Shown piece by piece: positions 3,853 to 25,434 of a stretch of DNA of 64,000 bases; position 1 is the stretch's first letter, and the number at the start of each line of letters is the position of its first letter. Location of the stretch: positions 1,670,227 to 1,734,226 of the forward strand of contig CBDCPB010000004.1 in the NCBI GenBank assembly GCA_965220125.1, read 5' to 3'. The DNA comes from Dehalococcoidia bacterium. GTDB taxonomy: Bacteria > Chloroflexota > Dehalococcoidia > UBA2979. The notes under the pieces were generated by a model, which saw only the letters and a program-made list of their open reading frames with translations, was not told the origin of the DNA and ran no database searches. A program made the position numbers and the translations under genes.

Positions 3853-4233
3853 TTACTTCCGCGCGACGCGGCGCTTGCCGGCGACGGTCCGCCGGGAGCC
3901 GCGGCGCGTGCGTGCGTTGGTCTTCGTGCGCTGCCCGCGCACGGGCAGCCCGCGGCGATGGCGATAGCCGCGGTAGCAGTTGATCTCGATCAGCCGCTGG
4001 ATGTTCTGGCGCACCTCGCGGCGCAGGTCACCCTCCACCGTGTGCTCGCCCTCGACGACGGCGCGCAGGCGCACGAGCTGCTCCTCCGACAGGTCGCGCA
4101 CCATCGCATCGCGGGGGATGCCGACCTGCTCCGCGATCTGGAGGGCCTTCGTGCGCCCGATGCCGTAGACGTACGGCAGCGAGAATTCGAAGCGCTTGTC
4201 GTTGGGAATCTCGACGCCTGCGACGCGTGCCAT
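3853..4233 (-). CDS. rpsM: 30S ribosomal protein S13
   Basis: 126 aa; [14 protein letters not shown]...[26 protein letters not shown]. Confidence 0.9.
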
Positions 4234-4243
4234 TCGCGTCCTC

Positions 4244-4357
4244 CTAGCCCTGGCGCTGGCGGTGCCGCGGAATCACGCAGATGACCCGCAGGCGGCCATG
4301 CCTGCGGATGATCTGGCAGCGGTCACAGCGCTTCTTCACCGACGCTCGTACCTTCAT
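4244..4357 (-). CDS. rpmJ: 50S ribosomal protein L36 (Cys/His zinc type)
   Basis: Hand-translated 37 aa: [37 protein letters not shown]. Below the size cut-off of the ORF track. Lies between rpsM and infA. Confidence 0.85.
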
Positions 4358-4386
4358 CGTTCGCTCCTCGGACGGCCGCCTCCGCG

Positions 4387-4653
4387 CTAGCGGAAGCGGT
4401 ACGTGATCCGTCCCCGGGTGAGGTCGTAGGGGCTCAACTCCACGAGCACGCGGTCTCCGAGCAGGATGCGAATGTAGTGCATCTTCATCCGCCCCGAGAC
4501 GTGCGCGAGCACGTGGTGCCCGTTTGCCAGCTCAACATCGAACTGGGCGTTGGGGAGCGCGTCCTTGACGACGCCCTCGACCTCGATGACCTCCTTCTTC
4601 TTGCGCTGTGGCGCCTGGCGTTGAGACCGCTGGTTCTGGCGTCCCTTCGCCAT
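4387..4653 (-). CDS. infA: Translation initiation factor IF-1 with a basic N-terminal extension of about 15 aa
   Basis: 88 aa; the core ...[51 protein letters not shown] matches IF-1. Start codon overlaps the map stop (ATGA). Confidence 0.88.
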
Positions 4654-5474
4654 CAGGCAGCGCCCCTGGCCGGGACCGCCGCTGCGTCATCGCGCGCTTC
4701 GTCCGGGCGGCCCATGCTGGTGAGGATCTCCGGCGCACCGTCGGTGACCGCGATGGTCTCCTCGAAATGGGCGCACAGGCTGCCATCACGCATGCGCACG
4801 GTCCAGCCGTCCGCTTCCTCTTCCGTGTGCTCGGCCCCGAGGCTGAACATCGGCTCCAGGGCCAGCACCATGCCCGGCTTCAGCATGTGGCCCACGCCGG
4901 GCCGGCCGTAGTTCGGGATGTGCGGCTCCTCGTGCATGCGCCTGCCGACGCCGTGGCCTCCGTAGTCGCGAATGATGCCGTAGCCCTCCTCGCGTCCGAC
5001 GGCCCCGATCGCGCTCGACAGATCGCCGATGCGCTTCCCGGCCAACGCCTGCTCGACCCCGGCGTGGACGGCGGCCTCGGTCCGTTCGAGCAGCCTCCGC
5101 ACCTTCGGCGAGGTGTCGCCGACGGCGGCCGTGAAGGCCGCATCGGAGACATAGCCGCGCCAGGTCACTCCCAGGTCGATGCTGACGATGTCGCCCTCCC
5201 GCAGCGCCCGGTCGCCCGGTATCCCGTGCACCAGTTGCGCGTTCACCGAGTAGCAGATCGCGCCGGGGTAGGGAGGCCGCCCGCCTGGACCGTAGCCGAC
5301 GAAGGTGGGCGTCGCGCCTCGACGCGCGATCTCCGCCTTCGCCAGCTCGTCCAGCTCACGGCCCGTTACGCCCGGAGCGATCGCGTCGAGGAGGAGCTTG
5401 CGCACCTCCGCGTTCAGCCTTCCGGCCTCGCGCATGATCGCGATCTCGTCCGGCGACTTTATGACGACGGACAT
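4653..5474 (-). CDS. map: Methionine aminopeptidase type I
   Basis: 273 aa; metal-binding region motifs ([21 protein letters not shown]-like). Confidence 0.88.
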
Positions 5475-21721: not shown

Positions 21722-22135
21722 CTAGTCCCTGCGCGTCCCGTACTTGCTGCGGCTGCGGCGGCGTCCCTCGACGCCGGTCGCATCGAGGGCGCCACGCACG
21801 ACGTGGTAGCGCACGCCCGGGAGGTCCTTGACGCGACCGCCGCGGATCAGGACCACGGAGTGCTCCTGCAACGTGTGGCCCTCGCCCGGGATGTAGGCGG
21901 TGACCTCGATGCCGTTGGTGAGGCGCACGCGGCAGACCTTGCGCAGCGCCGAGTTGGGCTTTTTGGGGGTGACGGTGCGCACCTGGGTGCAGACGCCGCG
22001 CTTCTGCGGCGAGCCCTTGCGCCCGCGCGTGGTGCGGTTGGTGAGCGAGTTGTAGCGGAAGCGCAGCGCCGGCGCCTTCGTCTTCTTCGTGACGGGCTTG
22101 CGGCCCTTGCGGACCAGCTGATTGATGGTCGGCAC
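21722..22135 (-). CDS. rpsL: 30S ribosomal protein S12
   Basis: GTG at 22135 gives [24 protein letters not shown]...; 137 aa. The track ORF runs further upstream into the leader. Confidence 0.9.
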
Positions 22136-22374
22136 TTCGTTCCCGTCCTTCGAGGCGCGCGTTCCTCGCGCCACTGTTGTGTGCGTTGCGCTTCCGGCTG
22201 TTCCGGCGCTGCGTTCTGCCAACCGGGCGGTGGGCAGAATGAACGGCCAGATGGCTGCGGTGTGAGCCAGAACGCGACATCGCACGGTGTGCGATACCTG
22301 TCGCCGGTCCTCACCCCGCCCCGGCCAGCCGACCGTCGAACCAACATGCCAACGCTGCGAGGCGCAACCAAAAA

Positions 22375-22403
22375 AGGCTACGTCCGGGCCGGTCCAGTGT
22401 CAA
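22375..22403 (-). promoter_or_regulatory. Putative sigma70-type promoter for rpsL-rpsG-fusA-tuf: TTGACA-N17-TAGCCT, read on the minus strand
   Basis: Plus strand carries tgtcaa at 22398-22403 and aggcta at 22375-22380, separated by 17 nt. A 5' UTR of about 230 nt would follow. Confidence 0.3.
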
Positions 22404-22431
22404 CGCGTGGGGATACCGCCTGCGCAAGCGC

Positions 22432-22812
22432 TCACCCCGGGCGATCAAGCGTGCGGCGGATGGCGTCCTTCACGTTCTGGCTCGTCATCCGCGACGCCAG
22501 GGCGCCGTGCTGCACTCGCAGCAGCAGGTCCGGGTCGAACGGCTCCCTCTGTTGAAGTACGCCGCGGATCCTCGCGTCATCCAACGGCCGCACTGGATTT
22601 AGTATCGCACCACGGTAGTAGACGCACGAGTCGCGGGACGGGTACTCGTGCTCGCCGGGTCCCACCACGACACATCCGGAGCCGCATATCCTCTGGCGCC
22701 CGTGGGTCGTGAGATTCGCCAGCGCCACAAGGCCAGCGTCGGTCTCAATGCTCAGGACAATCCAAAGGTGATTGCCGAAGTCCAGGCCGAGAATCGTCTC
22801 TCCGGGATCCAC
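22432..22812 (-). CDS. Uncharacterised 126-aa protein overlapping the Panacea antitoxin-like gene; candidate toxin
   Basis: Its GTG start shares one base with the upstream gene's TAG stop. GC is lower than the flanks. I recognise no family from the sequence (MDPGETILGLDFGNHLWIVLS...). Confidence 0.5.
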   Translation of the reverse strand: MDPGETILGLDFGNHLWIVLSIETDAGLVALANLTTHGRQRICGSGCVVVGPGEHEYPSRDSCVYYRGAILNPVRPLDDARIRGVLQQREPFDPDLLLRVQHGALASRMTSQNVKDAIRRTLDRPG

Positions 22813-23369
22813 TACCCAGAGTACGCCTCGTGGAAGGAGCGGGCGGCATCGGCTTGTTCGCGGACCGCCCGAATTTCCGTTTCACTCAGACCGGCTTCCC
22901 GGAGAATGACAGTCTCGTCGATACCAATGGCGCTGCCCGAGGGATCGACCCACTCGGGGAGATCGTGGGTGAAGTCAACCAACTCCCAGCGGCTCATGTG
23001 CCCGAATTGGTCGATCACCTGCTCGAGGACGGCCAGCTCGTACTCCGACAACTCATCAGCCTCAGTCCGCTTGATGAGACTGACTTCATAGTCCACCGGG
23101 CTCGACACGTACTCGTGCCATGCTGATGGCTCGACGGGGCGGTCTTGTCTGATCAGGTCCAATACCCGGCTCAGCGCCGGCCCACGGTCCATCGACACCA
23201 GGCGATCGCCGGTGATGGGGTACCCCGATTCAATCAGGGACTGCCGATCCGCGAGGTACAGCAGCTTGATGAGCTTGAGGTACGGCATCCGCCCGTCGTG
23301 GCGATCGAGCAGCCACGCGGCGGCCTGCGCGGTCTTGCGATCATTGAAAACGAACTGCATCTGTGTCAT
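22812..23369 (-). CDS. Panacea-domain (DUF4065, SocA/GepA-like) putative antitoxin
   Basis: Internal ATG at 23369: MTQMQFVFNDRKTAQAAAWLLDRHDGRMPYLKLIKLLYLADRQSLIESGYPITGDRLVSMDRGP matches the DUF4065 N-terminal pattern. GC is lower, with an AT-rich stretch at the start. Confidence 0.65.
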   Translation of the reverse strand: MTQMQFVFNDRKTAQAAAWLLDRHDGRMPYLKLIKLLYLADRQSLIESGYPITGDRLVSMDRGPALSRVLDLIRQDRPVEPSAWHEYVSSPVDYEVSLIKRTEADELSEYELAVLEQVIDQFGHMSRWELVDFTHDLPEWVDPSGSAIGIDETVILREAGLSETEIRAVREQADAARSFHEAYSG

Positions 23370-23392
23370 CTCAAGAACGATGATACACGCCG

Positions 23393-24166
23393 TCAGCGCG
23401 CCCGCGAGCCTCGATCGGCGTTCGCGCTGCTTCGCGCGCGCTCCCACGTCACCTTGCGGAACGACTCCCGGTAGCGAGGACCGGAGGTTGGCCCGGCGCG
23501 CTCGCGCCACCAGCGCAGCATTTGCTCCCGCGAGCGCCCGCCCACCTGCGAGACATGCGCCGTGACCGCTGCAACCTTGAGCTCCAGCACCGGCTCGATG
23601 TCGATGATGACGTCCGGGTCGGTCGCCCCGGCCAGCAGCAGCATGTCCGGGCGATGCGGCGTGAGGCCCTCCTCGCGGTGCTCGGGGTAGAAGAGGTGGT
23701 CGTCGGCCGCGGGGTAGATCGCGTCGTAGGCGGCGCGGCCGATCTCGCGATGGTCGCGGTGGTTGAAGCCGGGCCGGAAGCCGTCCCAGGTGATCGCGAG
23801 CGAGGGCCGCAGCCGCCGCAACTCGCGCACCAGCAGCCCGCGCATCTCGCCGTCGTTCTCGACGCCGCCGTCGGGGAAGCCGAGGAAGATCGGCTCGCTG
23901 ACGCCGAGCACGGCGGCCGCCTGGCGCTGTTCCTCCTCGCGCTCGGCGGCGAGCTGCTGGGCGGTGCGGCGCGGGTCCTTGGTGCCCTTGTTGCCGTTCG
24001 TCGCCACCAGCAGGTCGACCTCCCAGCCCGCCCGGCAGAGCAGCGCCATCGTGCCGGCGCAGCCGAAGTCGGCGTCGTCGGGGTGGGCGACCATGACGAG
24101 GGCGCGCCGGGGATCGAGATCGCCGACCAGTTCCTCGATGTCGGTGGGCGGCGTGTCGTCGCTCAC
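23393..24166 (-). CDS. PIG-L/LmbE family N-acetylglucosaminyl deacetylase (MshB/BshB-like)
   Basis: GTG start overlaps the stop of the glycosyltransferase (GTGA). Motifs: MVAHPDDADFGCAGT ... HRDH ... H. Confidence 0.8.
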   Translation of the reverse strand: MSDDTPPTDIEELVGDLDPRRALVMVAHPDDADFGCAGTMALLCRAGWEVDLLVATNGNKGTKDPRRTAQQLAAEREEEQRQAAAVLGVSEPIFLGFPDGGVENDGEMRGLLVRELRRLRPSLAITWDGFRPGFNHRDHREIGRAAYDAIYPAADDHLFYPEHREEGLTPHRPDMLLLAGATDPDVIIDIEPVLELKVAAVTAHVSQVGGRSREQMLRWWRERAGPTSGPRYRESFRKVTWERARSSANADRGSRAR

Positions 24167-25434
24167 GGCGCGGCGGCCAGCACCGGCTGCGCGGCCGGAC
24201 CGGGCGCGCGCTCGCGCAGCAGCGAGGCGTAGAGATCGAGCAGCCCGCTCGCGACGGCGGACCACTCGTAGCGCTCCATCGATCGCGCCGCGGCGGCCCC
24301 GAGGGCCTCGCGCAGCGGCCGGTTCTCCAACAGCAGGTCTATCTTCTCGGCAAAGGGGCCGGGGCAGCGCCAGGGGATCAGGTAGCCGCTGCGGCCGTCG
24401 GCGACCGTCGAGGTGAGGCCACCCACGCGCGAGGCGACGACCGGCACGCCGGAGGCCATCGCCTCCGTCGCCACCAGCCCGAACGACTCGTAGAACGAGG
24501 GCACGACCACCACGTCGGCGGCGTTGTAGTAGACGTCGATCTCCTCGTGCGGCACGGCGCCGACGAAGCGCACGAGGGAGTCGACCGCCGCCGCCCTCGC
24601 AACGGCGCGCAGGCGCGCGATCTCGCGCTCGGCGCGATCGTCCCCGCCCACGATCAGCAGTTGCAGGCGCTCTCGCCCGCTCATCTCCGCCAGCGATTCG
24701 ATGAGGATGTCGAGGCCCTTGAGCGGCTCGATGCGCCCGACGGCGAGCAGCACCTCCGCCTGCGGGTCGAGGCCGAGCGCGAGGCGCGCATCCAGCTGTG
24801 TGCGGGGACGGAAGCGCTCGCGGTCCACGCCGAGCGGGATCACCTTGATGCGATCGCGGGGCACGCCGTAGACCTGCTCCAGCAGCCGCTGCTCGTGTTC
24901 CGTCGCCGCCACGATGCGATCGACCTCGTGCACGAGGCGGCGCTCGGCCTCGCGGCGCGATTGTGGCTCGCGCTCCGAGGCGCGGTGGAGCAGCTTGACC
25001 TCGGCCAGCGTGTGGAACATCGCGACGTGCGGGACGCCCCACTCGCGCGCGAGCAGCGCGCCCGCCTCCACGGCGAGCCAGTAGTGCGAGTGCACGAGCT
25101 CGTAGGCGACGCCCTCGGCGCGCGCGAAGGCGGCGACGCGGCGCGCGAACGTCCCGGCGAGCGGCTGCAGCTCCTCCTTCTCGAGGCGCTCCGGTCTGCC
25201 GGCGTCGACATGCACCAGGCGGACGCCGGGGGCGATCGTCTGCACCTCGGGCTGGAGCGGGTCGGTGCGGCGGGTGAAGACGTCGACGGCGACGCCGCCG
25301 CGCGCGAGCCAGTTGGAGACCTCGCGCACGTAGACGTTCATCCCGCCGCTCTCGCGTCCGCCGAGCGGCGCGAGCGGCGAGGTGTGGAACGAGAGCACGG
25401 CGAGCCGTTGTGGGGCGAACATTGAGGCAGGCAT
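24163..25434 (-). CDS. GT4 glycosyltransferase, MshA-like (D-inositol-3-phosphate glycosyltransferase family)
   Basis: N-terminal LAVLSFHTSPLAPLGGRESGGMNVYVREV matches the MshA signature (HTSPL..PG..D.GGMNVY); C-terminal GT-B motifs present. Confidence 0.75.
   Translation of the reverse strand: MPASMFAPQRLAVLSFHTSPLAPLGGRESGGMNVYVREVSNWLARGGVAVDVFTRRTDPLQPEVQTIAPGVRLVHVDAGRPERLEKEELQPLAGTFARRVAAFARAEGVAYELVHSHYWLAVEAGALLAREWGVPHVAMFHTLAEVKLLHRASEREPQSRREAERRLVHEVDRIVAATEHEQRLLEQVYGVPRDRIKVIPLGVDRERFRPRTQLDARLALGLDPQAEVLLAVGRIEPLKGLDILIESLAEMSGRERLQLLIVGGDDRAEREIARLRAVARAAAVDSLVRFVGAVPHEEIDVYYNAADVVVVPSFYESFGLVATEAMASGVPVVASRVGGLTSTVADGRSGYLIPWRCPGPFAEKIDLLLENRPLREALGAAAARSMERYEWSAVASGLLDLYASLLRERAPGPAAQPVLAAAP

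Follow-up and report, generated by a model that had tools for sequence, protein, structure and literature searches.

The 64,000-nucleotide stretch of DNA analyzed here (hereafter the window) comes from contig CBDCPB010000004.1 of the Dehalococcoidia bacterium assembly GCA_965220125.1 (positions 1,670,227 to 1,734,226). On its minus strand lie two small, overlapping genes that we call panA and panT. The first encodes a protein with a Panacea domain and the second a protein of 126 amino acids (aa), and together they form a probable toxin-antitoxin (TA) cassette. A GT4 glycosyltransferase gene and a PIG-L deacetylase gene flank this cassette upstream, and the rpsL-rpsG-fusA-tuf-rpsJ genes follow downstream.

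A preliminary description of this locus, drawn up from the sequence without database searches, had taken the upstream gene for a Panacea (DUF4065) gene, and profile comparison bears this out. PanA matches PF13274 (SocA_Panacea) with E = 6e-24 and 85.6 bits, against a gathering cutoff of 25.7, and the match covers PanA residues 33–140 and positions 1–112 of the 113 in the profile. There is a further match to phrog_1281 (E = 7.5e-26). The protein has a single domain, with no additional N-terminal domain (the “noNTD” architecture), and scores 16.7 bits against the SocA equivalog model NF047745, for which the cutoff is 190. Read from the ATG at 23369 (MTQMQFVF), PanA comprises 185 aa; read from the ATG at 23360, it comprises 182 aa. 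The second start is favored, and is probably the true one, because PanA homologs open with M-x-F-V-F in an alignment with 13 homologs from paired loci and because a near-identical contig (L003) carries a PanA annotated at 182 aa.

Where the two genes meet, the minus strand reads TAGTG, such that the TAG stop of panA and the GTG start of panT share one base, as the preliminary description had also noted. Translational coupling of panA and panT through this 1-nt overlap is likely, judging from the arrangement of the codons. The expectation that the two genes would occur together elsewhere held as well: all PanT-family loci inspected have a Panacea gene directly 5′ of the toxin gene and in its orientation, and the conserved pair was seen at more than 20 loci, spanning at least six unrelated contexts and three replicon types. 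These include contigs from metagenomes and metagenome-assembled genomes (MAGs; L001–L014), with members just 24–30% identical, plasmids of Phaeobacter, Acetobacter, Endozoicomonas, and Acinetobacter baumannii, and temperate phages of Escherichia coli, Yersinia, and Pseudomonas (Lys8385Vzw, YeP1, and Sirocco). The E. coli prophage pair, annotated “Panacea domain-containing protein” and “hypothetical protein,” is found in 208 of 5426 complete genomes (∼4%). Junctions at the homologous loci are overlaps (−1, −4, or −8) or gaps of at most 15 nt, the gap being 14 nt in the Acinetobacter and Acetobacteraceae pairs. The exception is L002, where PanA is apparently truncated and a gap of ∼170 nt precedes PanT.

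The 126-aa protein itself matches no model in Pfam, NCBIfam, or PADLOC, and searches against PDB sequences, with the single sequence and with two profiles, returned nothing. Its single match in a sequence library is a weak one, to a PHROG of function unknown. A word-indexed search recovered 14 close homologs, and an exhaustive search with a hidden Markov model (HMM) built from their alignment found 1742 representatives at E ≤ 1e-3, with 354 at E ≤ 1e-10; these are counts of 50%-identity cluster representatives, nearly all of them 115–140 aa in length.

AlphaFold2, given an alignment of 15 sequences, produced a model of PanT with a predicted local distance difference test (pLDDT) score of 92.1 and a predicted template modeling (pTM) score of 0.87. 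The predicted structure is an SH3-like barrel of the MazF/Kid/CcdB toxin superfamily. The top Foldseek matches to this model are MazF structures (template modeling [TM] scores 0.53/0.62), and further relatives by fold are CptN, ToxN, and AbiQ. Compared with MazF, the PanT model has a short β1–β2 loop and two extra helices, formed by residues 74–82 and 112–123.

Residue conservation was counted over 127 diverse members of the family. The near-invariant positions are G4 (121 of 127), H15 (124), L16 (120), and W17 (109) in the N-terminal part; N33 (110), T35 (120), T/S36 (120), and C47 (117) in the middle, followed by E/D54 (123), H55 (120), H/R60 (110), and S/T62 (124); and R/K99 (120) and S107 (105) in the C-terminal part. 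Among the plasmid members that diverge most, H15, C47, H55, S62, and R99 are still kept, and in the window protein every family-wide conserved residue is intact. In E. coli MazF, the catalytic residues are Arg29, where strand 2 begins, and Thr52, where strand 3 ends. In the PanT model, H15 lies just ahead of strand 2 and T35 just past strand 3, and we infer, from secondary-structure register, that these two residues sit at the MazF Arg29 and Thr52 positions. Going by conservation only, H15, T35/T36, C47, E54-H55, R/H60, S62, and R99 would line a catalytic or binding site. An active site composed of H15, T35, H55, and R99 is a speculative proposal, and C47, H55, and H60 might, again speculatively, bind a metal.

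Panacea antitoxins have been found paired with dozens of toxin clusters, and two of the validated “RNase” toxins have no CDD hit but show HHpred similarity to EndoA/PemK/MazF (Kurata et al., 2022, PNAS, PMC8832971). The representative of one such cluster, T6, is the Pseudomonas moraviensis pair of PanA WP_083354365.1 and PanT WP_083201923.1. This PanT is toxic and is neutralized by its PanA, with which it forms a complex in pull-downs; it specifically inhibits incorporation of 35S-methionine, not that of thymidine, and it carries the annotation “EndoA/PemK/MazF-family RNases” (Kurata et al., 2022). In the excerpted T6 rows of Dataset S1 of that study, the pairs have a noNTD PanA, antitoxin-toxin order, and gaps of −1 or −4, and come from Pseudomonas, Halomonas, Oceanospirillum, Photorhabdus/Yersiniaceae, Acinetobacter (gap 14), and Rhizobiales. 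The same excerpt lists WP_012553438.1 of Gluconacetobacter diazotrophicus, with a gap of 15, as a T6 entry. Taxa and spacing of the proteobacterial family members found here agree with these rows.

It is WP_012553438.1 that connects the window protein to T6. The Acetobacter plasmid homolog falls in one 90%-identity cluster with this protein, which scores 93 bits with the HMM of the PanT family and 39 bits with one restricted to the close relatives of the window protein. The hhalign comparison with WP_012553438.1 extends over 104 columns with a probability of 95.9% (E = 6e-9), and the window PanT is ∼24% identical to it. Because WP_012553438.1 is homologous by cluster, by HMM score, and by hhalign, the 126-aa protein is, on these comparisons of sequence, a divergent Chloroflexota member of the described and experimentally validated PanT family T6. 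Membership of cluster T1, which in the excerpted part of Dataset S1 holds the sole Chloroflexi entry with antitoxin-toxin order and a −1 gap (Kurata et al., 2022), was rejected, as the T1 toxin of Salmonella phage Emek fails to match the family HMM.

The cassette stands out from its surroundings in composition. GC content is 0.61–0.64 across 22500–23400, compared with 0.68–0.76 on either side, and GC content at third codon positions is 0.79 for panA and 0.78 for panT, compared with 0.89–0.96 for GT4, PIG-L, rpsL, rpsG, and fusA. Scanning metagenomes with PIG-L as the query recovered five contigs (L016–L020) in which GT4, PIG-L, rpsL, and rpsG are contiguous and panAT is absent. Their proteins are 57–64% (PIG-L), 48–63% (GT4), and 86–93% (RpsL) identical to those of the window, and the distance from PIG-L to rpsL is ∼220–295 bp. 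Since these related contigs keep the flanking gene order without the cassette, panAT is a real insertion, and the ∼1-kb cassette was acquired horizontally. Both the lower GC content of the two open reading frames (ORFs) and their acquisition between the glycosyltransferase/deacetylase pair and the rpsL promoter, which the preliminary description had put forward, are thus upheld.

In the filled sites (window and L010) and the empty sites (L016, L017, L018, and L020) alike, the −35 element of the rpsL promoter is an invariant TTGACA, the spacer is 17 nt, the −10 element is kept as TAxxxT, and a conserved leader of ∼233 nt follows 3′ of the promoter. With the panT stop 28 nt 5′ of the −35 element and the PIG-L stop 23–32 nt 5′ of panA, the cassette fits precisely into the space that separates the end of one operon from the next promoter and disrupts neither. 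No integrase, tRNA, or junction repeats were found at the insertion. Three direct repeats, D1, D2, and D5 (13–16 nt), were rejected as an insertion signature, as they lie away from the junctions, inside PIG-L and in the promoter/leader of rpsL; in DNA this rich in GC, such matches are probably due to chance. The direct repeats at the locus include an exact one of 13 nt (22317–22329/23624–23636) and a near-exact one of 15 nt (22380–22394/23610–23624), each linking the rpsL promoter/leader to the 3′ part of PIG-L.

No recognizable complete promoter is present in the AT-rich left junction, a comparison of the DNA upstream of panA across contexts revealed no conserved promoter or operator motif, and the stretch that runs from the panT stop to the rpsL promoter has no predicted intrinsic terminator. 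Transcription of panAT probably depends on read-through from the GT4/PIG-L operon or on a promoter within the 3′ end of PIG-L, and read-through from panT toward rpsL is possible. Elsewhere in related Tepidiformaceae/Dehalococcoidia, the cassette is found after a gene for a CCG-domain oxidoreductase or beside RNase H, and this presence in other contexts among related genomes indicates that the two-gene unit is mobile.

Coordinates of the panAT cassette, its junctions, and its flanking features in the window
Feature	Coordinates	Strand	Basis or remark
panA, Panacea/DUF4065 antitoxin gene	22812..23369	(-)	TAG stop 22814-22812; PF13274 and phrog_1281 matches
panT, gene for 126-aa toxin of predicted MazF/Kid/CcdB fold, PanT cluster T6	22432..22812	(-)	GTG start 22812, TGA stop 22434-22432
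TAGTG overlap of panA stop and panT start, 1 shared base	22810..22814	(-)	sequence
Left junction, AT-rich spacer from PIG-L stop (23395-23393) to panA start	23370..23392	(-)	23 nt, or 32 nt if panA starts at 23360
Right junction, spacer from panT stop to rpsL -35 box	22404..22431	(-)	28 nt
rpsL (str operon) promoter, flanking and intact	22375..22403	(-)	TTGACA 22403-22398, N17, TAGCCT 22380-22375
PIG-L family deacetylase gene, upstream flank	23393..24166	(-)	PF02585, E = 5e-29
rpsL (ribosomal protein S12), downstream flank	21722..22135	(-)	ORF list, synteny in relatives

Selection was gauged against contig L010, a 95%-identical Dehalococcoidia MAG contig at ∼10% synonymous divergence. The ratio of nonsynonymous to synonymous substitution rates (dN/dS) is 0.17 for panT, 0.21 for panA, and 0.21 for GT4. 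Ratios of ∼0.2, together with the conservation of the pair in homologous loci, identify both ORFs as genuine genes under purifying selection. A sister contig, L062, has the same GT4-PIG-L-panA-panT-rpsL order (its positions 4001–4360 correspond to window 22432–22812). Its panA is intact, and its panT carries a 55-nt deletion and a +1 insertion, with loss of residues ∼27–44, including the T35 strand. Either this allele encodes an inactivated toxin or the change is an artifact of an assembly with 3.8x coverage.

Considered together, these data make it likely that panAT is a chromosomal type II TA system of the PanAT class, in which a MazF-fold endoribonuclease, PanT, is sequestered by PanA. By analogy with the P. 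moraviensis T6 pair, and in line with the predicted fold, free PanT would act as an endoribonuclease and block protein synthesis. PanA would bind PanT directly, forming a stable complex in which the toxin is neutralized. If PanA were lost, or were inactivated through proteolysis or a phage cue, the toxin would be freed and growth would be arrested. Since its insertion, the cassette has been inherited under purifying selection.

Several observations weigh against this mechanism. It is through the cluster assignment of Kurata et al. (2022) that the window PanT is tied to the validated P. moraviensis toxin, and some PanT candidates in that study were non-toxic in E. coli. The window PanT does not match PF02452, and just 2 of the 127 family members reach E = 0.024 against it, which is below threshold. 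An hhalign comparison of the PanT family with six MazF-family sequences, which had been checked against PDB, was not significant (probability 0.3%). As these comparisons at the sequence level are negative, kinship with MazF rests on the predicted fold. The position of the MazF catalytic Arg appears, by secondary-structure register, to hold a His in PanT, so the chemistry or the target could differ. For PanA, single-sequence structure prediction was unusable (pLDDT 41), and the search for a panAT promoter or operator was negative, a consensus scan giving one site that overlaps the panA start codon.

In a stronger departure from MazF, the T6 PanT family would not be a conventional MazF-type RNase: H15, C47, E54-H55, H/R60, S62, and R99 would replace the Arg/Thr dyad, and the active site, built on His or dependent on a metal (Zn), would have another chemistry or act on another target. 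In the lineage of the window, the position of panAT 28 nt 5′ of the rpsL −35 element, with no terminator between them, might in addition couple panAT transcription to the str operon. We consider this combination unlikely. The superfamily also includes CcdB, and PanT might be a gyrase poison that traps DNA gyrase and blocks replication, with PanA in the role of CcdA. The higher-scoring fold matches are, however, all MazF/Kid RNases, and CptN, ToxN, and AbiQ are RNases too. CcdB has a short C-terminal GyrA-binding segment; PanT instead ends in two extra helices. The validated T6 representative, moreover, specifically inhibited translation and not thymidine incorporation (Kurata et al., 2022), and a CcdB-like action is accordingly very unlikely. 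The preliminary description had suggested that the 126-aa protein might be an undescribed PanT-type toxin. The part of this suggestion that stands is that Pfam, NCBIfam, and PADLOC models are all unmatched, and RefSeq names the homologs “hypothetical protein”; the novelty does not, given the homology to the listed T6 member WP_012553438.1, the MazF/Kid/CcdB fold of the model, and the description and validation in 2022 of MazF-like PanTs without CDD hits (Kurata et al., 2022). A previously undescribed toxin family is for these reasons extremely improbable.

The role and state of the cassette raise separate questions. It could be a decaying or domesticated remnant with an inactive toxin, its ORFs persisting owing to recent insertion: chromosomal TA loci often decay, the L062 deletion removes the T35-containing strand, and several PanTs were non-toxic in the published tests (Kurata et al., 2022). 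We find this quite unlikely, as the window copy keeps all family-wide conserved residues, dN/dS is ∼0.2 in both genes over ∼10% synonymous divergence, and the L062 allele, from an assembly of low coverage, may be an error. A role chiefly in abortive-infection defense against phages, with PanA sensing a phage cue and then freeing the toxin, in place of a role in stress response or addiction, concerns the function of the system and is compatible with PanT acting as a sequestered endoribonuclease. Homologous pairs occur as morons beside temperate-phage integrases and also on plasmids, one pair adjoins a gene for an “abortive infection family protein,” related Chloroflexota copies accompany an orphan N6/N4 DNA methyltransferase, and Panacea has been proposed to be a sensor domain (Ernits et al., 2023, PMC10440598). 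Yet PADLOC gives no match, the window cassette stands alone between housekeeping operons, and phage-challenge data for T6 pairs were not found in the literature; defense as the main role is possible but doubtful.

Set beside known systems, panAT most resembles the T6 pairs, with a noNTD Panacea antitoxin upstream, antitoxin-toxin order, a −1/−4 type of overlap, and a toxin of ∼125–140 aa that is called “hypothetical protein,” lacks CDD and Pfam hits, and has a MazF/PemK-like fold. The 14-nt gap of the Acinetobacter/Acetobacteraceae homologs found here likewise corresponds to T6 entries of 14 and 15 in the excerpted rows. In contrast, the window toxin shares just ∼24% identity with the proteobacterial T6 member; its host is a member of the Dehalococcoidia (Chloroflexota), on whose chromosome it lies, whereas the excerpted T6 rows are all Proteobacteria; and its cassette sits immediately 5′ of the rpsL promoter. 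With MazEF and Kis-Kid (PemIK), panAT shares a small bicistronic operon with the antitoxin first, an expected arrest of translation by RNA cleavage, and a conserved Thr/Ser past strand 3 at the putative equivalent of the MazF T52 position. It departs from them in that PanT has no detectable sequence similarity to PF02452 and the antitoxin is a Panacea protein, not an AbrB/SpoVT or ribbon-helix-helix MazE/Kis. Relative to MazF, PanT also differs in the loop and helices described above, in a near-invariant His15 at the putative place of the catalytic Arg, and in the extra conserved residues C47, E54-H55, and R99.

The remaining comparisons are more distant. CcdAB differs in its lower structural score, in its C terminus, and in acting on replication, where the validated T6 relative targets translation. 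SocAB, the type VI TA system of Caulobacter, has an antitoxin with the same Panacea/SocA domain (PF13274), but its toxin SocB, a DnaN binder, is unrelated to the MazF fold, and SocA is a ClpXP adaptor, whereas a T6 PanA forms a stable neutralizing complex. The type III toxins CptN, ToxN, and AbiQ have RNA-repeat antitoxins, whereas the partner here is a protein, with no tandem-repeat RNA antitoxin at this locus.

With this locus, the validated PanAT family T6 comes to include Chloroflexota, and its clean insertion can be set against matching empty sites. For TA biology this is a small addition. It is of practical use for annotation: the family of T6 toxins spans 1742 clusters at 50% identity and occurs in ∼4% of complete E. 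coli genomes, yet has no Pfam or NCBIfam model, and its conserved His/Cys/His/Arg signature departs from canonical MazF.

Annotation of the PanT T6 family is inconsistent between databases. The E. coli toxin is a 128-aa “hypothetical protein” in RefSeq (WP_014640052.1) and a 139-aa protein overlapping panA by 4 nt in the phage record, so its start codon is inconsistently annotated. The E. coli pair, WP_000458584.1/WP_014640052.1, adjoins a prophage integrase (L057 and L060; phage Lys8385Vzw; O103 RM8385 chromosome 5122190–5123178). On the Phaeobacter inhibens plasmid pP54_a (NZ_CP010651.1 119853–120233; L015 2438–2818), a 126-aa member with a TTG start lies directly 3′ of a “Panacea domain-containing protein” gene and is absent from the gene table of the plasmid; directly next to this ORF, on the opposite strand, is a gene for an “abortive infection family protein.” The UniRef name of the Endozoicomonas member (P0185) is “PemK-like protein,” and some Pasteurellaceae T6 toxins in the excerpted part of Dataset S1 are called “terminase” in RefSeq (Kurata et al., 2022).

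On four related contigs of Tepidiformaceae/Dehalococcoidia (L001 6401–7265, L002 6451–7489, L008 4440–5055, and L011 ∼4110–5264), PanAT is followed by a conserved ORF of 44–45 aa and an N6/N4 DNA methyltransferase gene. This group sits between genes for a CCG-domain Fe-S oxidoreductase and an acyl-CoA dehydrogenase, and appears to form a small mobile or defense islet.

The region 5′ of rpsL (window 22136–22403, minus strand; also L010 and L016–L020) comprises the conserved promoter, which is sigma70-like, and the leader, which contains conserved long-range helices, ACGGUCGG/CUGGCCGU and GUGAG/CUCAC. RNAalifold predicted 26 pairs, five of them with compensatory changes, from a comparison of ∼4 independent lineages. 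Rfam has no family matching this leader or any other part of the 64-kb window. In Dehalococcoidia relatives, we regard it as a candidate ribosomal-protein leader of the S12/str operon. The GT4/PIG-L pair (window 23393–25434, minus strand) keeps its synteny with rpsL in every relative examined, and presumably resembles the BshA/BshB or MshA/MshB pairs of low-molecular-weight-thiol biosynthesis.

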